From the sequence record NC_101838.1: 64,000 bases of DNA; one strand, 5' to 3'. Shown piece by piece: positions 702-30,203 of the stretch (position 1 is the first letter of the stretch; every line of letters starts with the position of its first letter). The position numbers were made by a program, and so were the translations under genes. The DNA is from a phage. The notes under the pieces are model-generated. The model worked only from the letters and a program-made list of their open reading frames with translations. It did not search any database and was not told the origin of the DNA.

Positions 702-1927
702 TGAGCGTTATTCAACAATTCGCTAACCCGATGAATCCGCGTGAAACTGTTTTACTGGCTCACGGCATGATTAAACGTGTCAGCATCAAGCCTATCAAAG
801 GTGCTGATCCTACAACAGGTATTAAAACCACTGTGTGGCAAGGTAAGAAAATTGAATCCAGCCACACCATCTCTTTACTGATTTCTGAACTGGATTCCTC
901 TGATAACCTGCTTCAAGGTGGTGAAGAAGTTTGGATCAGCATGGGTGATAAGCTGCTTAAACCTGGTCATCAAGACTCTGTCTCTGTTAAAATTGATGAC
1001 AAGTGGGAAACCGTAACGCCGGGATGGATCGTAAATATCCCTTTGAAGGCAAACGAGCATAACGGTAAGACCTATTACAAAGGCTCACTGGCTAAGATGG
1101 TCAAGCTGGGTGCAGGAGAGGCTCCAGCAGCGACTCAGCAGCAAAAACAGCAACAAGGTGCACAATCACAAGGCCAGAAGCAGAAACCTCAGCAGAATGC
1201 CAATCAGGACGTTTTACGCATCTATGGCGATGTGACTCAGATTGTTGGCAACGTGGTTACTGTTAATGACCACAAGATTGGCGAAGGTGCTATGGTTGTA
1301 ACTGATGAGCAGCTTAAAGACCTGGTGGTAGGTGGTCGTGTTGCAGCCATTGTTGACAAAGACACCGGAAACATTATCAGTGGTTTCAAAGCCTATCCCC
1401 CTAAGGCAGAGAACGGCACTCAAGGCTCCGGTGGCAAGCGTAAATCCTCTTACGACCCTATCGGTGTGGAAACGGGGCATAGCATCAATGCGTTGCAGAT
1501 CATCCTGGATCGCGGGTTTAAGGTAGACGACCCACTGGGCGTGGCTAAAACACTGCACGTAGTCACCATTGAGCTTAAGAAAGAGTATGCTCAAGCCACC
1601 AACCGAACTGAAGATGAAGTAGGTGCCAGTGTCGGTAATGCGGTGTTGAACGCTTGTCGCCGTATTGACAAGAAAACGAAAGTTGATGATTTTGCAGCGG
1701 CAATTACTGCAGAAGCAAAAGATGTCTTGACTAATCTGGCTGAACCGTTGTACGATTGGATCAAGAACGGTGCTGGGTCAACTGACTATCAAGAACCCCA
1801 GGCTGCCAAACAGGAAGCAGCTCCACAGCAAAACACTGTAGACGCTCCTCCTGTAAATGATGAGGAAGATGACCCAATGGATCAGAATCCAGCACAGTAC
1901 ACCTTTGATGATGACATCCCTTTTTAA
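701..1927 (+). CDS. putative ssDNA-binding / SSB-interactome protein with canonical SSB C-terminal tail (408 aa)
   Basis: C-terminus ...PMDQNPAQYTFDDDIPF matches the E. coli SSB acidic tip (DDDIPF); Gln-rich linker (QQQKQQQGAQSQGQKQKPQQ) between two domains; N-terminal region not recognisably the canonical SSB OB-fold. Confidence 0.6.
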   Translation: MSVIQQFANPMNPRETVLLAHGMIKRVSIKPIKGADPTTGIKTTVWQGKKIESSHTISLLISELDSSDNLLQGGEEVWISMGDKLLKPGHQDSVSVKIDDKWETVTPGWIVNIPLKANEHNGKTYYKGSLAKMVKLGAGEAPAATQQQKQQQGAQSQGQKQKPQQNANQDVLRIYGDVTQIVGNVVTVNDHKIGEGAMVVTDEQLKDLVVGGRVAAIVDKDTGNIISGFKAYPPKAENGTQGSGGKRKSSYDPIGVETGHSINALQIILDRGFKVDDPLGVAKTLHVVTIELKKEYAQATNRTEDEVGASVGNAVLNACRRIDKKTKVDDFAAAITAEAKDVLTNLAEPLYDWIKNGAGSTDYQEPQAAKQEAAPQQNTVDAPPVNDEEDDPMDQNPAQYTFDDDIPF

Positions 1928-1942
1928 CATCTAGTTAACATA

Positions 1943-1970
1943 GCCCTGCCCGAAAGGGTGGGGCATTTTT
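1943..1970 (+). terminator. putative intrinsic terminator
   Basis: Imperfect GC hairpin (gccctgcccgaaagggtggggc) followed by cattttt just after the stop at 1927. Confidence 0.4.
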
Positions 1971-1989
1971 GTATAAGGAGATCTGAAAA

Positions 1990-2406
1990 ATGACATTAGA
2001 AGATATCATTGTTAAGCCTGAGAACTATGACCAATACAACCTGTCAACTCAATCTGTAGACCTTGGATGCGCCACGGTCAGTGCGTGGCTGGTTAACGGA
2101 AAAGAGCTGGATAAATGCTTAGAAGCTCACATGTCTATTAACAAGTTTCTGGATGAAAATACTCACTGGCTTGAGGGTGCAGGCGTATATGCTTCATGGT
2201 TGGATAGTATGGGATTCGACTACCAATCTGAAGAGGGGTGGTGGAGCTATTTAGCTATCTGTCCAGAGACGCTACAATGCTTCATGAAATATTCTGAAGA
2301 TTTGGAGTACCGGGCGGTGGTTGATAGTGCTATTGCCCGTTATAGCCGTAAACCTTTTTCCCACGACATTAAAACTGTGGAAGAATTTGTTGAAGTTTTC
2401 TGTTGA
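1990..2406 (+). CDS. hypothetical protein (138 aa)
   Basis: ORF preceded by aaggag SD-like motif; no recognisable domain. Confidence 0.5.
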   Translation: MTLEDIIVKPENYDQYNLSTQSVDLGCATVSAWLVNGKELDKCLEAHMSINKFLDENTHWLEGAGVYASWLDSMGFDYQSEEGWWSYLAICPETLQCFMKYSEDLEYRAVVDSAIARYSRKPFSHDIKTVEEFVEVFC

Positions 2407-2502
2407 CACAGATTGAAAGGTGTGCAATTATAACTTCATAGAACGGGAGGACGTGATGAACGAAGAAAACTGGGATGTATAACTAACAGGAGGCCACTGC
2501 CC

Positions 2503-2700
2503 ATGATTTATCGAATCCGTGTAAGAGAAGATGCACCAGGCTGTTACTTTGACTGGCGTGGGTGGTGGTTTATCCACCCAATGGATGGACTCACAGATAG
2601 AATGCTGGATGCTGCCCTTTACACAGATACCGACATAGAATATAATCTCTATCTGAAGGACGGTATAGATAACGGCCTGTTTGAAGCAATTCCTGTGTAA
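2503..2700 (+). CDS. hypothetical protein (65 aa)
   Basis: Short ORF preceded by aggagg SD-like motif. Confidence 0.4.
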   Translation: MIYRIRVREDAPGCYFDWRGWWFIHPMDGLTDRMLDAALYTDTDIEYNLYLKDGIDNGLFEAIPV

Positions 2701-2768
2701 GAGACTGTGATAGCTATGTTTTATGATCTTCCTGTAGCGCCACCACCTGTTGAACCAGGAGAACTAAG

Positions 2769-3194
2769 ATGATCTATGAAATGCCAAAACTGATTCGTGA
2801 CGATGCCCAAAACGCTCACACCATTATTATGGGCAAACGCATGGATATTATTTGTCATAAAGATTTCTGGGAAGGAAGTTACTTCACAGAGTATTTTGGT
2901 AAACTGGACAATGGTCTGCTGATCCAGTTCTACACCGATGCGGAAAACAACATTCCCTGGGAGTTCGAAACTGAAGATGTCCATAAACTTTTCACCTTCC
3001 TCGGTATTAAGGTTAAGGCCAAGTTTGAAGAAGGTGAGTGCGACGATTGTGGATTTTATGAGGTAACAGATTTCTACCTTCCTAGCGGTAAGAACCTTTA
3101 CTATGAAAGCCACTTCGGTAACTCCAATATGCCACAGTGCTGGACTGAGTTTTTTGAAATTGCGGAAGAGGAGCTGGCTTACCGTGATTATTGA
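2769..3194 (+). CDS. hypothetical protein (141 aa)
   Basis: ORF preceded by caggag; stop overlaps the probable GTG start of the next gene. Confidence 0.5.
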   Translation: MIYEMPKLIRDDAQNAHTIIMGKRMDIICHKDFWEGSYFTEYFGKLDNGLLIQFYTDAENNIPWEFETEDVHKLFTFLGIKVKAKFEEGECDDCGFYEVTDFYLPSGKNLYYESHFGNSNMPQCWTEFFEIAEEELAYRDY

Positions 3195-3642
3195 TACTGT
3201 AGAGGGAGATTTAATCTCCCTTTTTAAGAGCGGTGCTGGTCACCTGATCCACGGTTGTAACTGCTTCCACACAATGGGCAAGGGTATAGCAAAACAGATT
3301 GCCCGTGAGTTTCCTCAAGCACTGTCAGCCGACAAAGAGACTAGATACGGTTGCCTAAGTAAACTGGGTGCGTTCTCCCGATGGGAGCACTTATCTCCGG
3401 TAGGTATTGTCTACGGAATCAATCTATATACCCAGTTCTACCCAGGACCTAATGCTGAGTATTTCTCAATCCTGAAAGGCTTTGAGCTAGTCAATGAAGT
3501 ATTCAGCGGATCGACTTTACCATTCTACATCCCTAAGATCGGGTGCGGCATAGGCGGTTTGAAGTGGGAACACGTAGAGGACGTTATTAACCTTGCCACT
3601 TTCGACATAGATATTGTCGTGGTGGAGTACAAAAAGTGTTGA
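3184..3642 (+). CDS. macrodomain protein, TARG1/OARD1-like (O-acyl-ADP-ribose deacylase / ADP-ribosyl hydrolase family)
   Basis: Motifs GAGHLIHGCNCFHTMGKGIAKQI and IPKIGCGIGGLKWEHV resemble the TARG1/C6orf130 macrodomain signature as recalled (AHCISEDCRMGAGIA ... MPRIGCGLDRLQWENV). Probable GTG start at 3184 with gaagaggag upstream; the track ORF starts at an upstream ATG (3103) inside the previous gene. Confidence 0.6.
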   Translation: MIIDTVEGDLISLFKSGAGHLIHGCNCFHTMGKGIAKQIAREFPQALSADKETRYGCLSKLGAFSRWEHLSPVGIVYGINLYTQFYPGPNAEYFSILKGFELVNEVFSGSTLPFYIPKIGCGIGGLKWEHVEDVINLATFDIDIVVVEYKKC

Positions 3643-17466: not shown

Positions 17467-17527
17467 TATTGTGTCAAGTATTCCGATTGTGTCACCATTG
17501 TGTCTAAAGTGTCATATTGTGTCAGAC
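17467..17527. repeat. five tandem TTGTGTC(A) iterons
   Basis: tattgtgtcaag, gattgtgtcacc, cattgtgtctaa, agtgtcat, tattgtgtcagac at 12-17 bp spacing. Confidence 0.55.
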
Positions 17528-18099
17528 AAGTTTTTCTCCTCTTTGTCAAGTGCTGCATGAAAAATTTACAAACTGGTATGGTAGCATTTTTGCGGACCTG
17601 TTTACATTCAGGAGTGTATGTATAATCCTTGTTGTGTGGGCGTTTATACGTCTGGACGGTCAGAAGTCTGCAGGTTAATATCTAATCTATTGGCTGCTAA
17701 CTATATCCCACACAAATGATAAGAAATATAATTGTTATATGCGTAAACTGTAACTCATGTTATCAATCCCTGTATGGATCGCCAGTGGTGCGCATAATGG
17801 GTATTATGTTAAATTGCCCGTAATGATAAAGGTTCTCACAATGATAGGTATTCTCATTCACCCTCACAAAATAGATTGCAAATGTTGTGCCACTGTGTGA
17901 ACGGCCTCACCTATTAATTTGCCTCACTGCCTCGATATTTGAGAATTATTATAAGAATGAGAAGTATTCCCATTCCGTCCGCCTGGCAGCACTCCTGTAG
18001 GTCCTGCAAGGACTCTAGCTTTCAGCTAGACCCTTCGGGCCTCCCTGTAGGTCAGGTCAAAATCGGGGTAGAATTGGGCCTATTCAGATATTTCTGGCT

Positions 18100-18335
18100 G
18101 ACTCTTCAGGTCTGTGTGGGAAAAGCCAACCTCTCCGGCGGGGCAGGGGGATATCTGCGGGAAAATTGCAGGTCAATTAAAAAATTTACGTGGTATATGA
18201 AGCGCTCTTCAGGTAAGGCATGTATTATGGGATGAAACCCTCTTCAGGCAATGATATTTGTGGGTGTGATATTTGCTGGAAAGCCAGATATGACGGGACT
18301 CCCGGCGGGGCAGGGGTGGTACAGACAGGGAAAAT
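18100..18335. repeat. composite direct repeats (CTCTTCAGG ... CCGGCGGGGCAGGGG ... GGGAAAAT)
   Basis: Unit at 18100-18166 repeated at 18238-18335; extra CTCTTCAGG copies at about 18203 and 18654. Confidence 0.55.
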
Positions 18336-19014
18336 ATGAAGGATGTGGTTGGGTAGATTGATCAGACAGGTAGAGTATGGAATATGTTACAAGTATGTTA
18401 AATATGGAGGTTGAATATCTGTAGGATTTGTGTGTAAAATCAAAGACTTAAGTGGTGTTGTGGTATTTTCTATAAATAATTCAAGTTTAATAGGCAATAT
18501 TTGTCTCTATCCGCTTTGTGTGGTAAACAGATTCAGATTAGATTGGTTTACAAGTGTATACATAATATACAAATTAAAGATACAAGAAACCCCCCCTCCC
18601 CCCTTCGGCTACCATTCACCTTTTCCTCTGACTGGTACTTAAACACTTATTCAGACTCTTCAGGTTATCACCCATATATCATATGGCAGTGACTGGTGTC
18701 CTCCGGCCCCTCTTTCGTCACCCGTCCGCTTCGCCATGCTAATGCCATAGCTAATGGTTCGGTTGTTCACCCTGTTCACTCAGGTGTATCTCTATACCCC
18801 TTCAAACCGAAGAGAACAGAAAACCCGAATTACTCGGTAAAAGAAAAGAGAAGAACTTAATTTTATCAGGATAGGCAAGAATGTCAAGGTATGACTGCTC
18901 ACTAAACAAGCAAACAGTCATGTGTGGGAGGTAAGTGATTGTGGTGGTAGGAAATTTAGTTGAAAGATGTGTTATAGGTGCTTCCAGCACTTTAGCCGGG
19001 CAGCTAATTGTGTG

Positions 19015-19942: not shown

Positions 19943-20254
19943 CTATACCCACGAGGGCTTATCAAGGTTGGAGTAGCTGAAAGGTGTCAAAAGGTGACTG
20001 TCAAAATCTCTCAAACTATCCAAATCTTTTTCCTCGTCCTGACACCATCTGTGCCTACATTTGTTGTTGTAGTGCATGGAATGCATAGCGTTCTGCAACT
20101 TAACAGGCACAAGTGATTCAGGAGTAGATAGTATTGTTGGGTATGCCAGAACCACCTCAAACAGTGGAAACACATCGAAACTAAAGTCTACCTCTGCAGA
20201 GGTTGATGGCATGTAGGAGTATTTAGCCGCCTTTGTAGACATAATCCACCTCAC
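19943..20254 (-). CDS. hypothetical protein (103 aa)
   Basis: ORF in minus-strand array. Confidence 0.45.
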   Translation of the reverse strand: MRWIMSTKAAKYSYMPSTSAEVDFSFDVFPLFEVVLAYPTILSTPESLVPVKLQNAMHSMHYNNKCRHRWCQDEEKDLDSLRDFDSHLLTPFSYSNLDKPSWV

Positions 20255-20583
20255 ACAGGTTTGATAATACCTTCACCGAATAGCTCTTCGTATCTAATCT
20301 TGTCCGGATCCCACTCCTGGATAATTTCGAAGACAATATCCAACCCAGGGACAATCACTTCTCCAGTGTCAAGCTTAGCAAGAACAAAACCGGAAGGTTG
20401 AATGGTTTCCCAGTTACGGCGATCAGAATAAAATACTTCGAAAATATCACCAACCTCAATCCGTTTCTGTTGCTCAAGATGCTCAAGGTTCTCTTTCATA
20501 CGGATGCAGCGTATTTTTCGTGCAGGCCATAGACCACCTGCATCACGTTCATTCAATTCTTTTACAGTGATCGGTATACCCAT
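20251..20583 (-). CDS. hypothetical protein (110 aa)
   Basis: ORF; start overlaps downstream gene stop. Confidence 0.55.
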   Translation of the reverse strand: MGIPITVKELNERDAGGLWPARKIRCIRMKENLEHLEQQKRIEVGDIFEVFYSDRRNWETIQPSGFVLAKLDTGEVIVPGLDIVFEIIQEWDPDKIRYEELFGEGIIKPV

Positions 20584-20604
20584 CTCAAATCTCCTTCATA
20601 GATA

Positions 20605-20630
20605 GTAAAAAGAGGGGCCCAAGCCCCTCT
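20605..20630 (-). terminator. intrinsic terminator (minus strand)
   Basis: Hairpin agaggggc-ccaa-gcccctct preceded on the plus strand by aaaaa (T-run after hairpin on minus). Confidence 0.6.
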
Positions 20631-20638
20631 ATTTGTCA

Positions 20639-20944
20639 TTATTCTACAGAGCGTTTGAACAGAATGTCTGCCTCGGACATGTGCTCAACCTCTTCTTCGA
20701 TTTTAGCTCGACGTTTTTCAGCCTCATAGCGAATATCGAACTCGGTAGCCACCAGAGATTTGATGAATTTAGGAGAATACAGGTGATCCTGCTTCTCAAC
20801 GAGAATGATATCCTTAATGGCATCTTTCAGATCTTTAATCTGAAGTTGGAGTTCCACCAGTTCTTCGATTGTCTTGCGAAGGCGATCACGCTCTGCAGTG
20901 TCAGAAGGAAGAGAGGTGAACAGTTCAACTTTAGATTTAGCCAT
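20639..20944 (-). CDS. hypothetical coiled-coil protein (101 aa)
   Basis: Charged, heptad-like sequence. Confidence 0.55.
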   Translation of the reverse strand: MAKSKVELFTSLPSDTAERDRLRKTIEELVELQLQIKDLKDAIKDIILVEKQDHLYSPKFIKSLVATEFDIRYEAEKRRAKIEEEVEHMSEADILFKRSVE

Positions 20945-20972
20945 AGTAAGAGTCTCCTTATGTTGTTTTAAA

Positions 20973-21224
20973 TTAACGTTCTACAAAAATACCGTTCAGT
21001 TCAATAACCAGGAATTTCTGGTCTTCACTGTCGTCTCGTGCCAGCACCTCACAGACGTATCGGTCATCTCCATCATCATCGCAGTCAAATACAAGACTGA
21101 GGACTTTATCATGATAAACCTTCGCCACTACCGCCTCGTAAGTATTGCCGATTGTGAATCCAAGATAATCTCCGATGCATTTGACAACAACATGGTCGCC
21201 AGCATTCAAGTCAATCTTCGTCAT
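20973..21224 (-). CDS. hypothetical acidic protein (about 83 aa)
   Basis: Internal ATG of track ORF 20973..21290 with aaggag SD upstream; Asp-rich (CDDDGDD). Confidence 0.45.
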   Translation of the reverse strand: MTKIDLNAGDHVVVKCIGDYLGFTIGNTYEAVVAKVYHDKVLSLVFDCDDDGDDRYVCEVLARDDSEDQKFLVIELNGIFVER

Positions 21225-21379
21225 TACTGCGCTCCTTGGGTAATAATACTGTATGTAAAACTTTAACCAGAGATGTGAATAACGCCCCAAAACACACCGA
21301 TAGCGCTAAAACAGACAAGGCCATCATTAAAGCTTCAGTAAAATCAGTCACTCCTCACCTCTTGTTAGTCACTATACTG

Positions 21380-21643
21380 TCATTTATCCTTGCCGTCAAG
21401 AACTTTTTTAAATCTTTCAGGGATATCGCCTGTTCTTAGATAGCTCATGACCTCACAAGGTTCCCACTTGAATTTCTTACAAAGCAGGGCGGCTGAGATT
21501 GTTTCATTGCGAAAAGAAAGGATATTAATATCCCATTCTGAGAACCCCAACTTCCGAAGGGTAGCTACAGAAATCCTCACCGCAACCCAGCAGCAAAAAC
21601 ATGCAACAAACGCCACTGCTATAACCCACATCAGGATGTTCAT
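21380..21643 (-). CDS. hypothetical membrane protein (87 aa)
   Basis: N-terminal transmembrane helix (ILMWVIAVAFVACFCCWVAV). Confidence 0.5.
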   Translation of the reverse strand: MNILMWVIAVAFVACFCCWVAVRISVATLRKLGFSEWDINILSFRNETISAALLCKKFKWEPCEVMSYLRTGDIPERFKKVLDGKDK

Positions 21644-21732
21644 ACAAGCACCTCACTGAAATACAAGACACAGTGTTAAGGTTACAGACCAGCAAATAAT
21701 TAACAGTGCCGTTGCAACCTTGGCAAGATTTA

Positions 21733-22020
21733 TCATAGTGCCTCTAAGATTTCATATCCTTCGGGTCGGAATACAAGCCACTCCGTGGCTCCGTTTGGTC
21801 GATACGCTTTATACAGAACAACCTGATCTCGGCACATGCACATAGCTACATAGTTTTCATCCACACCTGCAGCCTGCATTGCAGCTTCTTCTCCGGCAAC
21901 TGCTTTGCTTACAACCTCCTTAGTAGGCAGGTGTGCGATCAGCTCGTCACCATCATTAATTCCAAAATGGCTGAGTTCTCCATTGGTATCTTTAATCTTA
22001 ATCTTAACCAGATCTTTCAT
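21733..22020 (-). CDS. small acidic protein, MK-start/[YV]E[IV] C-terminus family (95 aa)
   Basis: Shares N-terminal MK..I.I and C-terminal EGYEILEAL pattern with neighbouring paralogs. Confidence 0.55.
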   Translation of the reverse strand: MKDLVKIKIKDTNGELSHFGINDGDELIAHLPTKEVVSKAVAGEEAAMQAAGVDENYVAMCMCRDQVVLYKAYRPNGATEWLVFRPEGYEILEAL

Positions 22021-22349
22021 TAGTCTTCCTCCAGGTTCAAAGGCCCTAAGATTTCATATGCCAGATTAGAAGTTACCAGAGGGTCTTCTGCATCTTTAGT
22101 ATTATACCACCCGTGAATAACCAGAGTCCCACTCTGTTTCATATCTAACTGGAACTGTTCTGCAGTTTCCTCATCCATCTCTAAGATCTCCATAAGGTAC
22201 TTGATGTTAGGAAGGTATGCAGCTGTTACAGTTCCCTCTACCAGACCTTCGGGCCAACCTACATCCGGATGACAAGTAGGAACCAGGTTGGTCAGCTTAA
22301 TGGTGTACGCTTTTTCTGCACGAGCCTTCAGTAACTGGTCAATCTTCAT
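22020..22349 (-). CDS. small acidic protein, paralog family (109 aa)
   Basis: MKIDQ... start, ...AYEILGPL end; stop/start overlap with neighbours. Confidence 0.55.
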   Translation of the reverse strand: MKIDQLLKARAEKAYTIKLTNLVPTCHPDVGWPEGLVEGTVTAAYLPNIKYLMEILEMDEETAEQFQLDMKQSGTLVIHGWYNTKDAEDPLVTSNLAYEILGPLNLEED

Positions 22350-22699
22350 TATTCGTCCTCCTCTTCGGTGCCTGCTTCCAGTAATAAGTTAAGAATATCT
22401 TCTGCACAAGGCTCATAGAACTCTTGGCCTTCATTATCGATGATTTTGTAGTCATCTCCGCGAATAATCAGAGGATCACTCTCAAAATTATCGAGACCTT
22501 TAACAACGACAACACGATCGATTGCCATCATTGTAAGAACTTTATCGACATCTTCCTCTGCTACACCATACTGCAGCAGAATGTCTTTGGTAGGAGGAAC
22601 AGCATCCACCACAACACCGTTACCAAAACCTTCCGGTAAGTTAGCTAAAATATCTTCCGGAACCACACTAACATCAAAACCAGTAATTTCTACTTTCAT
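22349..22699 (-). CDS. small acidic protein, paralog family (116 aa)
   Basis: MKVEITGFDV... start; very acidic C-terminus. Confidence 0.55.
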   Translation of the reverse strand: MKVEITGFDVSVVPEDILANLPEGFGNGVVVDAVPPTKDILLQYGVAEEDVDKVLTMMAIDRVVVVKGLDNFESDPLIIRGDDYKIIDNEGQEFYEPCAEDILNLLLEAGTEEEDE

Positions 22700-22960
22700 T
22701 TACAGCACCTCTTCGTCAACTACTTCATAAAAATGGCCTGGGATTGCAATAGCGTTCTCACCTTCACCTACAAACACAGTTCCGTCAAGAATCAACATCA
22801 TAAGAGTTTCTGGAATATCCTCTTCCTGAACGTTGCCAAAACCTTTAATCAGCTCGTAGGTTGGAAGATTTACCTCTAAGATGTCACCATCTTTAGAGCG
22901 GAAATCAACACCATCCTGAATCTCTGCCATTTCAAGGTTTTTCAGTTTAATCTTCATCAA
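22700..22960 (-). CDS. small acidic protein, paralog family (86 aa)
   Basis: MMKIKLKNLE... start, ...FYEVVDEEVL end. Confidence 0.55.
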   Translation of the reverse strand: MMKIKLKNLEMAEIQDGVDFRSKDGDILEVNLPTYELIKGFGNVQEEDIPETLMMLILDGTVFVGEGENAIAIPGHFYEVVDEEVL

Positions 22961-23036
22961 TCAGTCTCCCGTCTTGTTAAGATGAAGGTATTATTTCACA
23001 CAGGGTTGGCGTTGTCAACACCTGTGTGCAAGAAAA

Positions 23037-23432
23037 TTACTGAAACAGTGCGGATAAATTACCTTCTGGTGGGAACTTATCTGCCAAAAACGGTGTTAGC
23101 ACAGTAGCCTTCTGAAGATCTGGGGTCCACTCGTTGTTCAGAACATCCCAGTAGTACGCAATGTTGCTGTGTGGGTGCCGCATTACGAACTTTTTCCCTT
23201 CGTAGTCATCTGAAACCTCTACAGAAGAAATAACAACAGAATCTTCAAGGGTTTCTTCATAGAAAGATCCACCTTCAAATTTCCAACGAGATGCAAGAGC
23301 TCCTGCCTTGAACGCTGCAGATAACGGACTGTCGGCAAGAACATACATTTCTTGCACTCTGTCGCTGCGATCTTTGCTTCTTACGTTGTATACAGTATCT
23401 GAGCTATACTCAACACGGTATAGGCTTACCAT
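23037..23432 (-). CDS. hypothetical protein, paralog of 25239..25637 (131 aa)
   Basis: Shared ...V(M/I)xHP(H/D)S...YW(D/N)...WTP... pattern with the ORF at 25239. Confidence 0.55.
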   Translation of the reverse strand: MVSLYRVEYSSDTVYNVRSKDRSDRVQEMYVLADSPLSAAFKAGALASRWKFEGGSFYEETLEDSVVISSVEVSDDYEGKKFVMRHPHSNIAYYWDVLNNEWTPDLQKATVLTPFLADKFPPEGNLSALFQ

Positions 23433-23764
23433 TACCGCACCTCCTCAATAACTTCCACATCTGAGCCCACCACAAATGCAAAAGGACAGGTTTCATGAAA
23501 GACATCCGGATCGCCGCCAAGCTTGCTAACAATCTCTCCACCACTAATAAACACAAGCTCACCGATATTCATCAGATTGCTGAAATAGTACCCATAATGA
23601 TTAAAGAATGCAGCAGGGTCAGGTAGACTAGTAGCCTCAAGCACTACATCAGTTGAGGTTACTTTCTTATCATAACCTCTCGCCTTTTGAGATGCAAGAT
23701 CTGCAGAATCCTCAGGCGACCGGAGATGCACAGGAATTGTTTCACCAATAAAGCGTACTTTCAT
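23432..23764 (-). CDS. small acidic protein, MKV-start family (about 110 aa)
   Basis: Internal ATG (MKVRFIGE...) of the track ORF; ends ...GSDVEVIEEVR. Confidence 0.5.
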   Translation of the reverse strand: MKVRFIGETIPVHLRSPEDSADLASQKARGYDKKVTSTDVVLEATSLPDPAAFFNHYGYYFSNLMNIGELVFISGGEIVSKLGGDPDVFHETCPFAFVVGSDVEVIEEVR

Positions 23765-23768
23765 ATTA

Positions 23769-24032
23769 TCACCCAACAACCATAGCTTCAAAAGGGGTCA
23801 TGAACGAATAAACGGCATCATCATCTGCTTCAGGGAATGCTCCCAAAGACTTCATGTCTGAGCCCTTGACAAATACAAGGTTTTGATCAAAAGCTTCTTG
23901 AGGATCAATCCGATACATATTTCGTAGAATATCGCCTACCTCCTCATCAAGAGGTGAGTATGCTGTGCACGTTTTTCCGATCAAGCTTTGAGAATCAGGG
24001 TATCCACCTGAAGTTTTAAAATAAACAATCAT
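23769..24032 (-). CDS. small acidic protein, related family (87 aa)
   Basis: ...LVFVKGSDMKSLGAF... core resembles VKGxDLxAAGA of the paralogs. Confidence 0.5.
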   Translation of the reverse strand: MIVYFKTSGGYPDSQSLIGKTCTAYSPLDEEVGDILRNMYRIDPQEAFDQNLVFVKGSDMKSLGAFPEADDDAVYSFMTPFEAMVVG

Positions 24033-24123
24033 ATAGTATCACCTCTGGTAAGAGATTGGGATTCCTTTCCCACAAATAATTACAAACCTTCCTTATCGAG
24101 GAAGTATGCTAATCCAAGCAGGA

Positions 24124-24393
24124 TTATTCCTCTACAATCTCATACACATCCGGAGTTACAATCAACTCTTCTCCGTTACCCGGTGCAACAAACACCACCA
24201 TGCCTTCAGGTGTGTGCTTTTTAGCCATCTCGATAACATCTTCTCGCAGAGCTGGCTCCATCAGATCAAAACCTTCACCCAGGGCATCACGAACCACCTT
24301 CATATAGTCAACTGGTTGTGCTTCGACAATCATACCTTCAACCAGTCCACAGTTTTTGTCTGCCAGCTCAGTTTTGAATAATTTAATTTTCAT
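24124..24393 (-). CDS. small acidic protein, paralog family (89 aa)
   Basis: MKIKLFKTEL... start, ...PDVYEIVEE end. Confidence 0.55.
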   Translation of the reverse strand: MKIKLFKTELADKNCGLVEGMIVEAQPVDYMKVVRDALGEGFDLMEPALREDVIEMAKKHTPEGMVVFVAPGNGEELIVTPDVYEIVEE

Positions 24394-24530
24394 TTAGAGG
24401 TCTCCTCAATTATTTGATATTAATAGCCGTAACCTAACACATTAACTACAACTGCGATTGCAAACATAATTTCAAAGCATGCAATCTCTACATTTGGGAC
24501 TAATTTCTTGATCACACCCATTGTAGCACC

Positions 24531-24848
24531 TCATTCTCTAAAGTCAATCTTTACTTTGCCTTTCCCCTTACCTTTCTTTCCACCGCATTTAGCCAGTTGA
24601 CGTGCTGCAACATCTACCATACGGTCAGTTGCCTCGTAAGCATCACTGCCTTTAGCTTTGGCAATAACTTCTTTTCCAGAATTGTCAAAAATGAACGCCA
24701 TAACTTCCTGGTGATCATTTTCAACTTTTACACTCACACGTGCATAGTTGGCAGAGGGATGCAAACGCTCCAGCTTAGACATTTTGTGGGAAATGAAAGA
24801 CACCATACCTTCAGTGATTTCTACGTTGCCAGTGATTTCAATTTGCAT
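24531..24848 (-). CDS. hpf: ribosome hibernation promoting factor / RaiA (YfiA) family protein
   Basis: MQIEITGNVEITEGM...KLERL...VSVKVE...AKAKGSDAYEATDRMVDVAARQLAK aligns by eye with recalled E. coli HPF (MQLNITGNNVEITEAL...KLEQY...VVLKVEK...ASAEGQDMYAAIDGLIDKLARQLTKH); Lys/Gly-rich tail. Confidence 0.75.
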   Translation of the reverse strand: MQIEITGNVEITEGMVSFISHKMSKLERLHPSANYARVSVKVENDHQEVMAFIFDNSGKEVIAKAKGSDAYEATDRMVDVAARQLAKCGGKKGKGKGKVKIDFRE

Positions 24849-24930
24849 AACGTGTTCCTTTTAAAGAAGAGGGAACCAAACCCTCTTTGAAAACAATGAT
24901 ACTAAATCTGAAGCGTTGTGTCAACAGTTT

Positions 24931-25221
24931 TTACAGATTGTTGTCGATAGTTTTTAAAATATCCACAGCAAGATCTGCCATTTTTCGAACATACTCTGCA
25001 AACTCAACAGGATCCTTGATCAAAGAATTCACAGGGTCGTACCCTAGAGCGTTCAAAATGGCTGCAGCATCTACAACCTTCTCATCATTTGCGAAGATCT
25101 CTCCATCAAACTTGTAGGTCCATTTTGAGTCAATCTTGGCAGGGAATGATTGGTCAACGCTTGTTACACCATCCTTTTTAAACGCTCCGGTGTTATCAGT
25201 GTCTAGAACTAAATCCATCAT
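24931..25221 (-). CDS. hypothetical protein (96 aa)
   Basis: ORF in minus-strand array. Confidence 0.5.
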   Translation of the reverse strand: MMDLVLDTDNTGAFKKDGVTSVDQSFPAKIDSKWTYKFDGEIFANDEKVVDAAAILNALGYDPVNSLIKDPVEFAEYVRKMADLAVDILKTIDNNL

Positions 25222-25238
25222 GTTAGTACCTCACCGTT

Positions 25239-25637
25239 TCAGTTTAGCTTTTCTTCAACAACCCCATAGCTCGGGACAGAGTCAAGAGCTTTCTGGTTTA
25301 AAAGTGGTGTAGCAGAATCTGCAAACGGTGTCCAAGTTTTTGTTCTGGCATTCCAGTAATGCTTCACTCTGGAATCTGGATGCACTATAACAAAAACTTT
25401 TTCACTTGTCAACACATTAATTTCTTCTACACCCTTGCTGATAATTTCTCCGTCATAGCCACCAGTCTGGTATCCTTCGTACCAGGTTCTTGCATATGCA
25501 TAGCCAGCCTGCCAGCATGCAGCCTCCTCCGAGGTGGAGACTACGTAGAAGTCTTTCTCAAATTCTGGGATACGCCCTTGCTTTACGCTCCAAGCTCCGC
25601 GAATTTTCATTGTAACTTTGAACAGTTTATTTTTCAC
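25239..25637 (-). CDS. hypothetical protein, paralog of 23037..23432 (132 aa)
   Basis: Shared VIVHPDSRVKHYWNARTKTWTP pattern. Confidence 0.55.
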   Translation of the reverse strand: MKNKLFKVTMKIRGAWSVKQGRIPEFEKDFYVVSTSEEAACWQAGYAYARTWYEGYQTGGYDGEIISKGVEEINVLTSEKVFVIVHPDSRVKHYWNARTKTWTPFADSATPLLNQKALDSVPSYGVVEEKLN

Positions 25638-25649
25638 AACGGTTACCCA

Positions 25650-25904
25650 TCACAGCTCTACAATCTCTGCATCTGACCCTGCCCCAAAGGCATAATAGGA
25701 TTCTTCCCCGAAATAATATTCCGGTGCACCAGCAGCGATCAGGTCTGATCCCAAGATAAACACCACGTTGTGGCCTACATAACTGTGATGTTGCCGCACA
25801 GGATCATCCCACGGCAACCCTTCAAAGTATACCGCAGGAACGACCTTTCCCTTCAGGAAGGATTGTCCCAAGTAGACGTTAGAATCAAGAATTTTAACCT
25901 TCAT
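25650..25904 (-). CDS. small acidic protein, MKVK-start family (84 aa)
   Basis: MKVKILDSNVYLGQ...GKVVPA...GSDLIAAGA...AEIVEL. Confidence 0.55.
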   Translation of the reverse strand: MKVKILDSNVYLGQSFLKGKVVPAVYFEGLPWDDPVRQHHSYVGHNVVFILGSDLIAAGAPEYYFGEESYYAFGAGSDAEIVEL

Positions 25905-26121
25905 TCTCGTCCTCCACTATCTCTACATCCTCACCAAGGGCAAAGTTGTAGGTCCACTGGCTGTCAAAGCAGTCCTGAGATGCACCAGCGGAAATAAGAT
26001 CTGCACCTTTTATTTTTAAAAGGTCAGGATAATCTTCGTTAGGGATAGCGGTAAACACTTTCCCCACTAAGGGCTCCTGACCAATATAGAAGCTTGAATC
26101 TAAAACTTTAACTTTCATCAA
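25894..26121 (-). CDS. small acidic protein, MKVK-start family (75 aa)
   Basis: MMKVKVLDSSFYIGQ...GKVFTA...KGADLISAGA...VEIVED; tandem to the previous paralog. Confidence 0.55.
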   Translation of the reverse strand: MMKVKVLDSSFYIGQEPLVGKVFTAIPNEDYPDLLKIKGADLISAGASQDCFDSQWTYNFALGEDVEIVEDENEG

Positions 26122-26405
26122 CGGTCTCCCTCAGGCGGTTGTGGGACGTAAACACTGTTACGAATATCGTCAGCAGTGTAGTAATAAGTGGTTCCAACCC
26201 TATCTCGGGCTGCAATGTACTCTGCTATACCAATAAGTGCCATTGATTTGGTGGCGTATCTTCCCCACTCGTTAGCTCCCCAGTAGAATTTAGACCAGTA
26301 GGGAATAATACCGAACAAATATACCTTTTGACGAACTTCCCAGTAAGTGCCTTTTCCGACAAGTTTAAACTCTACTTCACTACTGTTAATCTTTTTCATT
26401 ATCAA
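26118..26405 (-). CDS. hypothetical protein (95 aa)
   Basis: ORF; Trp/Tyr-rich. Confidence 0.5.
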   Translation of the reverse strand: MIMKKINSSEVEFKLVGKGTYWEVRQKVYLFGIIPYWSKFYWGANEWGRYATKSMALIGIAEYIAARDRVGTTYYYTADDIRNSVYVPQPPEGDR

Positions 26406-26698
26406 TCTCCCTCTACCGTGGTCGGATTGTCAGTAAGAAATTGAGCATTGGCTGGAGGCACGCCTGACATTTTCCACACAACCATAAGTTTGTAACCAGG
26501 AACTCTATTAAGTGCAGATCGAGTAGAGTTTGTGCACGTATACTTTCGCTTTCCAAACCCGTTCTCCATCATAATCCAGTACCCAGTATCTTTGTCACCA
26601 GGTATCGGTAGACCACCTTCATCAACCCACTGAATGGACCACGGCACGATGGCTACAGCTTTATATTTAAACTTTTTAAACCACTCAAAAAGTTTCAT
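26402..26698 (-). CDS. hypothetical protein (98 aa)
   Basis: ORF; overlapping start/stop with neighbours. Confidence 0.5.
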   Translation of the reverse strand: MKLFEWFKKFKYKAVAIVPWSIQWVDEGGLPIPGDKDTGYWIMMENGFGKRKYTCTNSTRSALNRVPGYKLMVVWKMSGVPPANAQFLTDNPTTVEGD

Positions 26699-26793
26699 AA
26701 TTCAGCCTCGCATAGACATAATCACTATAAACAGGCAAACAATGAATCCGAATGCCACGCCACCCATAAACGTTAATATTGATGCAATCATAG

Positions 26794-26991
26794 TCAATCA
26801 GCCTCGCTTGGCAACTCTTCTACCTTAACATGCCGAAAAGTGTTACCGTAATGGTTGATCCATGACATCAGCTCGCTTTCTTGCTCTTCCTCTGGGATGA
26901 ACTCTCGAATGCTGACAAGTTTTAAGAAAACCCAATCACAATCTGCACCCATTCTACCAGACAGGCAATAGTGCTTCATAAAACCTCCCAC
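26794..26991 (-). CDS. hypothetical protein (65 aa)
   Basis: ORF in array. Confidence 0.45.
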   Translation of the reverse strand: MGGFMKHYCLSGRMGADCDWVFLKLVSIREFIPEEEQESELMSWINHYGNTFRHVKVEELPSEAD

Positions 26992-26996
26992 CTGGT

Positions 26997-27191
26997 TTAG
27001 AATATTGCTTCTTCCATTGCACCTGAGAGCAACAAAGAGGTGATCTGGCTAACATTCATCTCAGACTCTACTTCCTCCCCTTTGAAAGGTTCGCGGCAGA
27101 ATAGGACTGTTTCAGGACTTTTACTTCGAACAATATAATACAAATCATTCAATGTGTTGTAGTAATAAGTGTTAAAACGTAAGTTTTTCAT
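26997..27191 (-). CDS. hypothetical protein (64 aa)
   Basis: ORF in array. Confidence 0.45.
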   Translation of the reverse strand: MKNLRFNTYYYNTLNDLYYIVRSKSPETVLFCREPFKGEEVESEMNVSQITSLLLSGAMEEAIF

Positions 27192-27475
27192 TTTCTAGTC
27201 CCCTTCTTAGATTTTTGTGTAGAAACGCTTTCTGCAATACGAGACAAACGTTCTTCTGAAGCCTTGCCTATTCCAGGTTTTTTGAGTGGGTTATCTTTAT
27301 GACCACACTCCAATTGGATATTGGATACCTCTCCAACCTTGTAAGTCAATTCTAGCAAAAGGTTGTCGTCCTTGTCAAATGTTCTTACGATAAATTTTTT
27401 ATCGTTCTCCTGAACTTCGTATCGGGTACCCGCAGTATACAGCATGGTGCCATCCGCATAGGATATCCAGATCAT
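27188..27475 (-). CDS. hypothetical protein (95 aa)
   Basis: ORF in array. Confidence 0.5.
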   Translation of the reverse strand: MIWISYADGTMLYTAGTRYEVQENDKKFIVRTFDKDDNLLLELTYKVGEVSNIQLECGHKDNPLKKPGIGKASEERLSRIAESVSTQKSKKGTRK

Positions 27476-27819
27476 TGAACCTCCTTCTGCTGCAACAGCA
27501 TTAACTCTTTGTTGGAGATTTTTACTGCTGTTTTTATTGTTCCATCTTCACGAAACCACGACCAGAACTCTACAGTGTCCCCACTGTCAAGCAAAGCATA
27601 CCCGTGGTAGAAGTCTTTGTCCTTAGACAGTTTCTCATCTATGTCTGCATCGACACATTCGTGATCCATAGCATTTTGCCTGAATGCATCGGTTATACCA
27701 ATGCACGCCTTGCTCTCAAGACTGGTATATCCGATATCTTTTAATTCAGTTTCCCAAGTCCAGTACCCTATAAAAGCTAAAACAGCTACCCACATTAATA
27801 ACGTTTTAATCTTTGGCAT
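27472..27819 (-). CDS. hypothetical membrane-anchored protein (115 aa)
   Basis: N-terminal hydrophobic segment LLMWVAVLAFIGYW. Confidence 0.5.
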   Translation of the reverse strand: MPKIKTLLMWVAVLAFIGYWTWETELKDIGYTSLESKACIGITDAFRQNAMDHECVDADIDEKLSKDKDFYHGYALLDSGDTVEFWSWFREDGTIKTAVKISNKELMLLQQKEVQ

Positions 27820-27881
27820 TCTCTCTACCTCTTTCTTAGTTTATTTCACTATGGCACATCCTTTGTGCCATATCTCAACCA

Positions 27882-28343
27882 CTACTTAAATAGTAGTCCA
27901 AAATAGTGCAAAATTAACAGAAGTTGAACTACACCTAGTGCAACGGCGAGTATGTTAATCTTAGAATCGAAAAACTTCTTAACTTTTACTCTAAAAGGTT
28001 CCTTAATGTCCTTTACGATCCTATTTATAGATGATTTCATATCCCTGATTACCATCCTAAACATTAGAGACGGATCTTCCTTCTCTGTAATAGAATCGAA
28101 AACATACTCTCTTCGGTCATAAGGGCCTCCAGATCTGCGTATTAACCTCTCCACAGAGACCTCGTACGACACACCTGTAACGTAATCATCTATGATAAGT
28201 AGTGACGGGTCTTTATCGTCCAAGGGTATTAAAGTTATCTTTCCAGATTTTGTTAAAATTTCTCCTTTTTCAAGCAAGGTGTACCAATGCTCTCTACCAA
28301 GATTGTTGAGGCACGTTTTTACATATTTAACAAACATCGTCAC
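27882..28343 (-). CDS. hypothetical protein with C-terminal transmembrane helix (153 aa)
   Basis: C-terminal hydrophobic segment ILAVALGVVQLLLILHYFGLLF. Confidence 0.5.
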   Translation of the reverse strand: MTMFVKYVKTCLNNLGREHWYTLLEKGEILTKSGKITLIPLDDKDPSLLIIDDYVTGVSYEVSVERLIRRSGGPYDRREYVFDSITEKEDPSLMFRMVIRDMKSSINRIVKDIKEPFRVKVKKFFDSKINILAVALGVVQLLLILHYFGLLFK

Positions 28344-28525
28344 CCCTCATCGCACGTCTGATATAACCACTCTATGAAATCTTGATACCATTCGCCCTCT
28401 GAGCGCTCCGTAGGCCAATAATCTTCACCCTCTCGTGCATTAAAATCTGAGTATTCAACTTTCCACTCCTTTACCAGCTCGTGGAGAAGGTTTTCAGCCT
28501 GCTCTAAAGATTTATTTTTTGCCAT
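28340..28525 (-). CDS. hypothetical protein (about 61 aa)
   Basis: ATG with aaaaaggagacagca SD chosen over the track's upstream start. Confidence 0.45.
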   Translation of the reverse strand: MAKNKSLEQAENLLHELVKEWKVEYSDFNAREGEDYWPTERSEGEWYQDFIEWLYQTCDEG

Positions 28526-28744
28526 TGCTGTCTCCTTTTTCAAGATAGTTATACATCAGAACTGCACCACCTAAGATGGCTACCAGTAACAATATCCCAG
28601 ATAGCATCTCAATAAACATGGCTTGAAACACTGGAAGGTCTCCCTAAATTAACGCACCATTTTAAATACATGCTCTTTTCCCATAAAGGTGCCTGGCTAA
28701 GATCTGCGTAGAACGCAATCTCTTTAAGAACAGTATAGATAGTT

Positions 28745-29062
28745 TTAGGTGCGGTCTCCATCCCTACTCTCCTTCCTGATATTCTTGTAGTAATCAACTA
28801 GGCACATTATTACGATGAAGATAACAACAGGCCAAAAAGGTGCAGCAGTGATGATGGTGATAAAATCATCAAACTTCACCCTTCGTCTGGACACGATGCA
28901 TACACCTGTCAAGAATACCGCTGTTATAACGGACATTACCAGGTAACCTATTAGCACAACATTTATACTCATTGGTCCTCCCCTTTGTAGGTTAAATTGT
29001 ATACTACAAATGGTCGCTGAGGGTGTCAAGAAAATTATCCCGTTCTTTCTCAGAGTTTTCAT
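28745..29062 (-). CDS. hypothetical membrane protein (105 aa)
   Basis: Two hydrophobic segments. Confidence 0.45.
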   Translation of the reverse strand: MKTLRKNGIIFLTPSATICSIQFNLQRGGPMSINVVLIGYLVMSVITAVFLTGVCIVSRRRVKFDDFITIITAAPFWPVVIFIVIMCLVDYYKNIRKESRDGDRT

Positions 29063-29537
29063 GTGTGTAGCTGAAAAACATATCGAGAATAACCTTATTG
29101 ATATATTCCAGCTCCTCTGTGTTCAGATGCTTAGCAGGATCTACAATGACATCCCAAATATCATACAGACCACACTCATGATACCCATAACGCCACTCAA
29201 TTGTCAAGCTGAGCGGCAAATCTTTACCTTCACAAACAACCTTCCATCTACATATGTTGGTATCTGGTCGTACCTGTGCACGGTAAACCTGCACAAAATC
29301 CAATTTGAATTTGAGGTACTCGTCATACAATTTAAGCACAAAGCTCTCGATTTGTGGAGACACTTTTGCAGCAAACTGTGCGTATTTGTACTTGCACTGG
29401 ATGATCTTTCTGCGTTTTGCAGTTAAATTTTTTGCCGCCAGTTGTTCTTCAGTGTATCTCCACCTACGATCAACAAACGCAACAGGGTCTTTGTCCCCAT
29501 AGAGGTCTTCCCAGTTAATCAGAAGCATACCTGTCAC
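29004..29537 (-). CDS. hypothetical protein (177 aa)
   Basis: ORF in array. Confidence 0.5.
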   Translation of the reverse strand: MTGMLLINWEDLYGDKDPVAFVDRRWRYTEEQLAAKNLTAKRRKIIQCKYKYAQFAAKVSPQIESFVLKLYDEYLKFKLDFVQVYRAQVRPDTNICRWKVVCEGKDLPLSLTIEWRYGYHECGLYDIWDVIVDPAKHLNTEELEYINKVILDMFFSYTHENSEKERDNFLDTLSDHL

Positions 29538-29767
29538 TCCTCCACAACTTCAAGGCCTTTACCGCCTCGCTCTGGCAGATTACTTAAAGATAGGTAATAC
29601 ATATAATCAGGAGAGATCCTGCCAGACTCTGCACCTGCAGCTAGTAAATCCTTCCCTTTAACCAGGACAACATTCTCGTTTGCAGATAGCCGTTTTGCTT
29701 CCACAATTTTACCAACACAGTCAACCAAGGAAGGGTACCCTAAATCTGTAAGAAATTTAACTTTCAT
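29534..29767 (-). CDS. small acidic protein, MKVK-start family (77 aa)
   Basis: MKVKFLTDLGY...VGKIVEA...KGKDLLAAGA...LEVVEE. Confidence 0.55.
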   Translation of the reverse strand: MKVKFLTDLGYPSLVDCVGKIVEAKRLSANENVVLVKGKDLLAAGAESGRISPDYMYYLSLSNLPERGGKGLEVVEE

Positions 29768-29804
29768 GCTACCTCCTACCTACCGTCCCTGGTAAGATAA
29801 ATTA

Positions 29805-30203
29805 TTACTGAACAGAGCGCGGTGCTGGGAAGGATAACTCTTCTAAAGAGAAGATTTCATTTCCTACCACCCAAGTTGCTGGGTCATCTGGATCAACAGG
29901 TTGGATAATCATTACCTCATCCGCCTCGCACACACGTTTCCCACCCATAGTAGCGTCAGCCACTAACATACGCGGCTCTTCAGAAATGCACAGGTAGCCA
30001 CCTCGGCCCACTGTTCCTTCCACGGGATCCTGCCCTTTGACCACAATGAATACCTTCTCTCCTGTGGAGATATTACTTTTCACACTAACAGTTTGACCAA
30101 CTTTAGATGTACCGATCTTGGTGGCTTCAAACATTAAATCCCGAATTACTGTTGCATAGTTGCCGGACACTTTCTTACCTTCTTTAGTAATCTCAATCTT
30201 CAT
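29805..30203 (-). CDS. hypothetical protein, MKIEIT-start (132 aa)
   Basis: MKIEITKEGKK... start shared with other family members. Confidence 0.55.
   Translation of the reverse strand: MKIEITKEGKKVSGNYATVIRDLMFEATKIGTSKVGQTVSVKSNISTGEKVFIVVKGQDPVEGTVGRGGYLCISEEPRMLVADATMGGKRVCEADEVMIIQPVDPDDPATWVVGNEIFSLEELSFPAPRSVQ

Follow-up and report, generated by a model that had tools for sequence, protein, structure and literature searches.

Among the coliphages used in therapy and biocontrol, Vequintaviruses (rV5-like myoviruses of ~137 kb) are common, and some two thirds of their genes lack a functional assignment. Here, we ask what a dense block of small hypothetical genes contributes to one of them: positions 20251-30203 of a 64,000-nucleotide stretch of phage sequence record NC_101838.1, a stretch that we refer to as the window. 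A preliminary description, made from the sequence alone, had read this region as an expansion of at least 12 tiny acidic paralogues accompanied by a second related pair, and had attributed it to diversifying host-takeover or anti-defence factors. We find that the expansion is real and concentrated in this region and that, as judged from sequence profiles, it comprises two five-member families (A and B) and one pair (C) rather than a single family of 12 or more. Our preferred reading, to which we assign a probability of roughly 0.5, is that these genes form a paralogous Vequintavirus accessory module of three families, whose products may be stoichiometric binders that serve as host-specific or counter-defence factors. 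The window itself can be placed by sequence among the Vequintaviruses (rV5-like coliphages): the region is 99.5% identical to Escherichia phage ime, and 122 phage records match it, nearly all of them from this genus.

Two five-member families and one pair of paralogues

All-versus-all BLASTP of the region returned three groups. The first was centred on 25650 and 25894 (E = 7e-15; genes are named here by their lower window coordinate), with 29534, 23432 and 23769 attached more weakly; the second was weak throughout (22349/22700, E = 8e-4; 22020/22349, 0.01; 21733/22700, 0.05); and the third was the pair 23037/25239 (E = 7e-10, 28% identity over 119 amino acids). BLASTP across all 475 open reading frames (ORFs) of the window revealed no other credible paralogue pair, the only further match (E = 7e-4) covering 26 residues and involving an ORF of 49 residues on the non-coding strand. 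Iteration of a hidden Markov model (HMM) from three A seeds recovered exactly five genes, and iteration from 22349 and 22700 converged on exactly five B genes. Among the latter, 24124 was matched at E = 1.4e-4 by an HMM of the other four B members, the next ORF scoring E = 1.4 or worse. In leave-one-out searches, each omitted A or B member ranked first against ~470 non-member ORFs, with E-values between 1e-16 and 1e-5 in family A and between 8e-8 and 2e-3 in family B. Furthermore, full-length profile alignments computed with hhalign reached P = 1e-6 to 1e-24 within families; after the addition of orthologues from L012 (a 128 kb metagenomic contig from a distant relative, 29-74% identical), B-B alignments with P = 1e-6 to 5e-4 joined all five B members.

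The two families were not linked to each other in this way. HMM cross-searches between A and B gave E > 1, whole-family hhalign gave P = 0.024 (7e-4 with a deeper A profile) over the first 24-27 columns only, and the best of 25 subfamily pairs had P = 0.0023. A and B are not demonstrably homologous by sequence, and on the cross-searches and hhalign comparisons together we rejected a single 12-member superfamily; of the larger family initially proposed, the paralogy stands, divided over two families of five and a pair. Alignments of family C against A and B gave P = 0.4-0.7, by which we excluded the idea that C proteins are fusions containing an A or B domain. The pair itself, 23037 and 25239, had been recognised from a shared core and is borne out both by BLASTP and by a common match to phrog_7379.

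The terminal motifs on which the paralogy had first been suggested do discriminate the families. An MK[VI]x[IVFL] start is present in 8 of the 10 A/B members and in 3 of the 112 others among 122 putative window genes, an [YVLA]E[IV][IVL][EDG]-type end in 8 of 10 and 1 of 112, and the two together in 7 of 10 and in none of the 112. ORFs 19015 and 29805, presumably counted in the original 12, were rejected as members, having only the N-terminal MKIEI in common with the families and no profile match; ORF 12611 likewise bears the N-terminal motif without profile support. All ten A and B proteins are acidic, with isoelectric points (pI) of 4.05-5.4, as had been described, whereas the C member 25239 is not (pI 7.8). 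The described tight packing also holds: the minus strand carries every gene of the region, and neighbouring genes share a single base at 22020, 22349, 23432 and 26118 and 11 bases at 25894-25904.

Existing protein families capture parts of this arrangement. phrog_5009 takes in three A members and, more weakly, 23769 (E = 1e-36 to 1e-4 for the four), and was matched by 31 of 32 aligned family A sequences; phrog_13367 is another family A group, phrog_7379 was matched by both C genes, and family B corresponds to five single-subfamily groups (phrog_11868, 12359, 12155, 12457 and 12794). All of these PHROG families are annotated as of unknown function. Searches of Pfam, NCBIfam and PADLOC returned no matches for family members, and PDB sequence profiles for A and C gave nothing below E = 0.26.

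Families A and B are predicted to form SH3-like small barrels

The preliminary description had assigned no fold. We therefore modelled one sequence of each family with AlphaFold, 25894 for A and 22700 for B, each from a 30-sequence alignment, and obtained predicted local distance difference test (pLDDT) values of 89.9 and 87.9. In the A model, strands span residues 2-5, 21-23, 33-37, 56-61 and 65-69, with a short helix at 38-43; in the B model the strands follow in the same order, and two inserted helices (34-38 and 45-57) separate strand 2 from strand 3. Both models describe SH3-like five-strand small barrels, B with a helical insert, and thus agree in predicted fold and strand order despite the absence of a significant sequence link. 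For family A, Foldseek against BFVD returned small uncharacterised phage proteins as the best matches, with TM scores up to 0.85-0.89. No Pfam SH3 or KOW match was found at E up to 5 for 62 family sequences, and none for the ten window proteins.

The members, all on the minus strand, vary mainly around this predicted core. In family A, the modelled 25894 (25894..26118; 74 amino acids, MKVKVLDSS...VEIVEDENEG; orthologue bas54_0159 in phage Bas54) stands in tandem with 25650 (25650..25904; 84 amino acids; bas54_0158), which has a loop insert between strands 2 and 3, a leave-one-out E of 9e-16 and a place in phrog_5009. Gene 29534 (29534..29767; 77 amino acids, ...LPERGGKGLEVVEE; bas54_0166) lies ~3.4 kb upstream, in the sense of transcription, of the remaining cluster, and is tied to the family by a leave-one-out E of 1e-5, an hhalign P of 7e-19 to the 25894 subfamily and a phrog_5009 match of 8e-36. 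A probably helical insert is found in 23769 (23769..24032; 87 amino acids; bas54_0152; leave-one-out E = 6e-6), which aligns to three other A subfamilies with P ~2e-6, and a long insert in the N-terminal half in 23432 (23432..23764; 110 amino acids from MKVRF; bas54_0151; leave-one-out E = 1e-5), which aligns to the 25650 subfamily with P = 4e-8.

Family B consists of the modelled 22700 (22700..22957; 85 amino acids; bas54_0149); 22349 (22349..22699; 116 amino acids with an acidic C-terminal extension; bas54_0148), with a leave-one-out E of 8e-8 and hhalign P of 1e-6 to the 22700 and 5e-6 to the 22020 subfamily; 22020 (22020..22349; 109 amino acids with an N-terminal extension; bas54_0147), which ranked first at a leave-one-out E of 2e-3 and shares the P of 5e-6 with the 22349 subfamily; 21733 (21733..22020; 95 amino acids; bas54_0146), with a leave-one-out E of 1e-5 and P = 5e-4 over 82 columns to the 24124 subfamily, and a counterpart that is split into ORFs 153/154 in the rV5 record; and 24124 (24124..24393; 89 amino acids, MKIKLFKTE...VYEIVEE; bas54_0153). 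The two C genes are 25239 (25239..25637; 132 amino acids from GTG, or 123 from a later ATG used in some records; bas54_0157) and 23037 (23037..23432; 131 amino acids; bas54_0150; phrog_7379 at 2e-66).

Three adjacent family genes appear to be required on a uropathogenic host

Phenotypes of the orthologues were available from the HIDEN-SEQ preprint, in which Bas54 (phage MaxBurger; family orthologues 90-100% identical to the window proteins) was subjected to saturating transposon mutagenesis followed by transposon insertion sequencing (Tn-seq; Extended Data Table 8 of bioRxiv 10.1101/2025.11.20.689424). On K-12, all A, B and C orthologues were scored 'Non-essential' except bas54_0151, 0152 and 0153, which were 'Intermediate' (bioRxiv 10.1101/2025.11.20.689424). 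On CFE311, a uropathogenic clinical E. coli strain and the only clinical strain with readable data, insertions in bas54_0152, 0151 and 0150 dropped to zero reads (log2 fold change -7.16, -6.17 and -6.77, respectively; adjusted P = 0), and those in bas54_0157 dropped four-fold (log2 fold change -2.14, adjusted P = 0). Insertions in bas54_0153 dropped as well, not significantly, and the B genes bas54_0149 to 0146, the A genes 0158, 0159 and 0166 and the gene of a phage-encoded ribosome hibernation factor were unaffected (bioRxiv 10.1101/2025.11.20.689424).

Because bas54_0149 to 0146 lie downstream of 0150 and were unaffected, the requirement appears to concern 23037 itself. Moreover, insertions in 0158 and 0159, upstream of 0157, were not depleted, so that polarity seems weak; the preprint authors argue against widespread polar effects and admit that locus-dependent effects are possible (bioRxiv 10.1101/2025.11.20.689424). 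According to these published data on the orthologues, 23769, 23432 and 23037 are conditionally required on CFE311 and not on K-12. The suggested host-takeover or anti-defence role thereby gains dispensability on K-12 and a CFE311-specific effect for three genes, plus the four-fold effect for 25239; no such effect is seen for the other eight. The family genes are not discussed in the preprint, whose follow-up was confined to bas54_0063 and bas54_0140, two genes that counter DS-28, a predicted system of CFE311 (bioRxiv 10.1101/2025.11.20.689424).

The families are old, ordered and under purifying selection

Along the direction of transcription, 29534 (A) is followed by non-family genes and then by 25894 (A), 25650 (A) and 25239 (C); next come 24931, a promoter, the hibernation-factor gene (24531), 24124 (B), 23769 (A), 23432 (A) and 23037 (C); and after a further promoter the run ends with 22700, 22349, 22020 and 21733 (all B), three more genes and a terminator. 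An A-A-C triplet is thus present twice, as 25894-25650-25239 and as 23769-23432-23037. Positional counterparts align with P = 2e-6 (23769/25894) and 4e-8 (23432/25650), and 23769 scores equally well against 25650 as against 25894. This repeated order fits an old block duplication.

Since the paralogues share 26-41% protein identity and their synonymous sites are saturated, the ratio of non-synonymous to synonymous substitution rates (dN/dS) was computed between orthologues, comparing the window with phages SYGMH1, nomo and rV5. For families A and C and for all B members but one it was 0.03-0.29 (mostly 0.03-0.2); the remaining B member, 22700, gave 0.44 and 1.09 in two very shallow comparisons (dS < 0.06). 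The ClpP-like protease and methyltransferase genes have similar values, so that there is no sign of diversifying selection; the orthologues are under purifying selection. All family genes were present in the four compared genomes, and full-length matches of at least 80% identity were found only in ~117 Vequintavirus records (tblastn with one A, one B and one C query). Furthermore, five A and five B genes are retained in unchanged order in L012, with only one C gene, and some external homologues are closer to 25894 than are its co-resident paralogues, from which it follows that the A and B subtypes are old rather than products of a recent burst. The low dN/dS, the breadth of closely matching records and the retention of all ten A/B genes in L012 speak against the label 'diversifying' that the preliminary description had attached to the expansion.

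Two database proteins (P0014 and P0017) join a 25894-type front to a 25650-type back, a chimera as expected from deletion between tandem paralogues, and a third (P0028) joins a front of the type found in prophage protein P0031 to a 25894-type back. These chimeras show that recombination among family A paralogues is ongoing.

Relatives of family A occupy accessory positions in other phages

When 5.8 billion proteins were searched through a word index, only orthologues of the ten A/B genes came back; a further such search with a broad family A alignment brought in few additional members. With the A profile, a full HMMER scan of 1.84 billion representatives gave 35 matches, ~30 of them full-length proteins of 63-87 amino acids, with the wider consensus MKVKLLNDGGYxGM..VGKVVEA...G.DLI.AGA...Y.F..G.E.E(I/V)VEE. 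Two giant proteins, P0094 (with YDG/MBG adhesin repeats) and P0113 (without a Pfam match), were treated as spurious, the matches covering short internal stretches only.

Where their context was readable, the relatives sit in accessory or moron positions: adjoining Prim-Pol and AAA_24 genes in a 42.5 kb phage contig, flanked by RecT/YqaJ on one side and NinX/integrase on the other in a Morganella prophage, and between the Q antiterminator and holin genes of E. coli lambdoid prophages, the last in a cluster of 309 sequences. In phage Tls, the gene of the relative gp04 (1598-1945; HMM E = 4e-4) immediately precedes stp and is close to the polynucleotide kinase gene pnkP. The Tls record annotates stp as 'activator of host PrrC lysyl-tRNA endonuclease'. 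Stp is an anti-restriction peptide, and we read the surroundings of gp04 as a counter-defence neighbourhood. In Krischvirus ECD7, the relative ECD7_00074 (HMM E = 3e-9) lies within 1826-3325 among neighbours with weaker A-profile matches (00076, 3e-4; 00072, 0.012; 00073, 0.18), which hints at an independent tandem expansion of family A in this T4-like phage.

The genes are probably transcribed by host RNA polymerase

The region forms the far end of a long leftward block that starts near 58 kb. The first part of this block encodes RNA ligase, DNA ligase, exonucleases, thymidylate synthase, ribonucleotide reductases, PhoH, the ClpP-like protease and the methyltransferase, and the later part ~45 small hypothetical genes; in rV5, the same block was proposed to be a transcription unit of genes 82-163 (PMC3606486). 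Two sigma-70-like promoters on the minus strand match 11 of 12 consensus positions. The one at 22990..23018 (TTGACA, 17 bases, TG-AATAAT, with an extended -10) lies upstream of the four-gene B run, with 22700 as its first gene, and occupies the same site as P150 in the rV5 annotation. The one at 24896..24924 (TTGACA, 17 bases, TATCAT) is annotated as P144 in rV5 and precedes the hibernation-factor gene; transcription from it would run on into 24124 and the second A-A-C module. Downstream of the cluster, a strong bidirectional intrinsic terminator at 20611..20630 (8-bp stem with 6 GC pairs) has an equivalent in rV5 that is also annotated as a terminator. The coincidence of these near-consensus promoters and the terminator with the rV5 annotation indicates that host RNA polymerase probably transcribes the family genes, and the promoter consensus together with that annotation suggests early or middle timing. 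A literature search for transcript-timing data found none for the rV5-like phage group.

Neighbouring genes and annotations

Several other features of the locus deserve mention. Between 25239 and the hibernation-factor gene, 24931-25221 (minus strand) encodes a 96-residue acidic non-family protein with the highest dN/dS of the region (0.44-0.57 in all three comparisons). The hibernation-factor gene itself (24531-24848, minus strand; Pfam Ribosomal_S30AE, E = 1.8e-12) stands in the middle of the paralogue cluster with its own sigma-70-like promoter, and its Bas54 orthologue is dispensable on both K-12 and CFE311 (bioRxiv 10.1101/2025.11.20.689424). Orthologues of the adjacent 24124 are called 'sigma 54 modulation factor' in several GenBank records (e.g. 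APCEc02, nomo and ime); we rejected a hibernation or sigma-54 modulation role for 24124, which has no Pfam match, Ribosomal_S30AE included, and the label seems to have been carried over in error from the hibernation-factor gene next to it.

A variable patch at 26402-28337 (minus strand) holds no family A, B or C genes. Bas54 lacks the six genes 26402 to 27882, the last 19 codons of 26402 remaining, and in SYGMH1 three genes outside the families are divergent (29004, 51% identity; 26402, 65%; 26118, 74%). The last gene before the terminator, 20639-20944 (minus strand, 101 amino acids), matches phrog_639 'transcriptional regulator' (E = 1e-21) and, weakly, a GapR-like DNA-binding family (E = 0.04), and its protein is 100% conserved in three other genomes. 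Directly below the region, 19943-20242 (minus strand) is a 99% identical orthologue of bas54_0140 that falls outside A, B and C by every profile; its counterpart is called 'portal vertex protein' in one GenBank record.

Further down, a gap of ~2.3 kb without annotated genes (about 16600-18900, with a lower GC of 0.38) separates the converging plus- and minus-strand blocks. Its rV5 equivalent is labelled 'non-coding' (PMC3606486), and its Bas54 equivalent tolerates no transposon insertions (bioRxiv 10.1101/2025.11.20.689424), an observation that points to an essential non-coding function. Neither Rfam nor tandem-repeat scans gave a match in the region or in this adjoining gap. Finally, 18 GenBank records (MG0656xx) labelled 'Campylobacter phage', with Campylobacter jejuni given as host, share at least 95% identity with E. 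coli Vequintaviruses over the region, and their host label looks doubtful.

Discussion

We propose that each A and B member (74-116 amino acids, pI 4-5.4) is a single SH3-like beta-barrel domain, in which the conserved first, second and last strands would give rise to the MK[VI]K start and the acidic (Y/V)E(I/V)VEE end, and the variable loops would carry paralogue-specific inserts; family C is an unrelated pair of 131-132 amino acids. Made from host-RNA-polymerase promoters, these proteins would act as stoichiometric protein binders, each paralogue holding a different host (or phage) partner through its variable loops, and would serve as host-specific infection or counter-defence factors rather than in core replication. 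The 23769-23432-23037 copy would be one functional unit, needed on CFE311 but not on K-12. The predicted single-domain barrel, the acidic charge and the combination of a conserved core with variable loops favour stoichiometric binding, with specificity presumably set by the loops. Our findings support the idea that these are conserved accessory genes of host-specific value, a subset of which shows a phenotype as expected of counter-defence or host-adaptation factors.

A bolder version seems rather improbable to us, at perhaps half the weight of the general proposal: that the A-A-C genes of 24032-23037 form a three-protein counter-defence module directed against an immune system of uropathogenic E. 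coli, and that A and B represent a repertoire of SH3-like binder scaffolds reused in lambdoid prophages, T1-like and T4-like phages. If true, one conserved barrel with paralogue-specific loops would have been aimed, copy by copy, at different host defences or factors.

Several observations weigh against the proposal. None of the members is known to have a target, a binding partner or a biochemical activity. For seven of the ten A and B genes, no phenotype was seen on the two hosts, a result that fits different specificities or redundancy and also fits the lack of any role in host interaction. The CFE311 requirement of the two A genes could in part be a polar effect on 23037, and a gene may become essential on a clinical strain for reasons of metabolism or host factors rather than of immunity. 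The Tn-seq values come from a preprint supplementary table, with no individual family-gene knockouts reported; in its Data S6/S7, the sheet 'K-12_vs_CFE303' duplicates the command line, numbers and 311 sample of 'K-12_vs_CFE311'. Promoter consensus is the only ground for early timing. Furthermore, the alignment behind each structural model pooled all paralogues, and for this reason the barrel fold is only assumed for B members other than 22700.

Among other explanations, the families might not exist at all: in a phage of biased composition, short MK starts and acidic ends could resemble one another by chance. That A and B cannot be joined by sequence, and that 19015, 29805 and 12611 bear the N-terminal motif without profile support, would suit such a view, and chance resemblance indeed accounts for 19015, 29805 and the notion of a 12-member family. 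For A, B and C taken separately it is refuted by sequence comparison, and we regard it as having next to no chance of being right: every A and B member ranked first when left out, with E down to 1e-16, full-length alignments reached P = 1e-6 to 1e-24, PHROGs independently groups A members in phrog_5009 and both C members in phrog_7379, and the scan of 1.84 billion proteins added ~30 small full-length A relatives.

A more serious contender, still unlikely in our estimation, is that the genes are near-neutral duplicated cargo and that the CFE311 requirement of the A genes is a polar or local artefact upstream of a truly needed 23037. The silence of seven of ten A and B genes on two hosts is in keeping with it, as is the fact that only the C member 23037, whose downstream genes are unaffected, is unambiguously required, and the preprint authors allow for locus-dependent effects (bioRxiv 10.1101/2025.11.20.689424). 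Nevertheless, every paralogue is under purifying selection (dN/dS mostly 0.03-0.2), all ten are kept in a relative whose orthologues are 29-74% identical, the queried members recur in ~117 records, and insertions in 0158/0159 do not reproduce the 0157 phenotype, which argues against strong polarity. Slightly less probable again is a role in modulating transcription or translation, in which KOW- or Sm-like barrels would dock on the ribosome, RNA polymerase or RNA together with the phage hibernation factor. KOW-like matches and adjacency to the hibernation-factor gene lend this idea weak support, whereas the proteins are acidic, contain no KOW motif and have phenotypes uncoupled from that of the hibernation factor.

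A literature search found no description of these paralogues, and the rV5 genome paper mentions none (PMC3606486). The paralogy is already implicit in PHROGs; new here are the assigned fold, the view of the ten genes as a set, the A-A-C order that recurs and the connection to a CFE311 phenotype. A block of 'hypothetical proteins' thereby becomes three defined families with a predicted fold and an existing genetic phenotype, in which three adjacent genes and a weaker paralogue are singled out as needed for growth on a uropathogenic strain, a testable lead towards a new host-range or counter-defence determinant. For the phrog_5009 family, spread over lambdoid prophages, T1-like and T4-like phages, this provides a first functional foothold.

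Comparison with known systems helps to locate the module. In PHROGs, 23432 and the five B genes are each placed in a family of their own, so that the ten-gene picture, the shared fold and the A-A-C order are not apparent there. bas54_0140 belongs to the same accessory block and, like the orthologues of 23037, 23432 and 23769, is dispensable on K-12 and lost on CFE311; it differs in having an identified cognate defence system, whereas none is identified for 23037, 23432 and 23769. By HMM, tblastn and Foldseek, family A belongs to the same sequence family as ECD7_00074, Tls gp04 and genes of Vibrio phage VpV262, Proteus phages and lambdoid prophages, none of which has a known function; these relatives are mostly single-copy, unlike the five diverged A copies that Vequintaviruses carry alongside five B genes. 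Compared with established SH3-like small barrels, namely SH3 domains, the KOW domains of Spt5/NusG, PsaE and the C-terminal domain of retroviral integrase, the A and B proteins show ~10-20% sequence identity and depart from them in having a short helix and a long loop after strand 3 (A) or a helical insert of ~25 residues between strands 2 and 3 (B). Moreover, the A and B families are predicted to deploy the fold as stand-alone acidic phage proteins rather than within larger ones.

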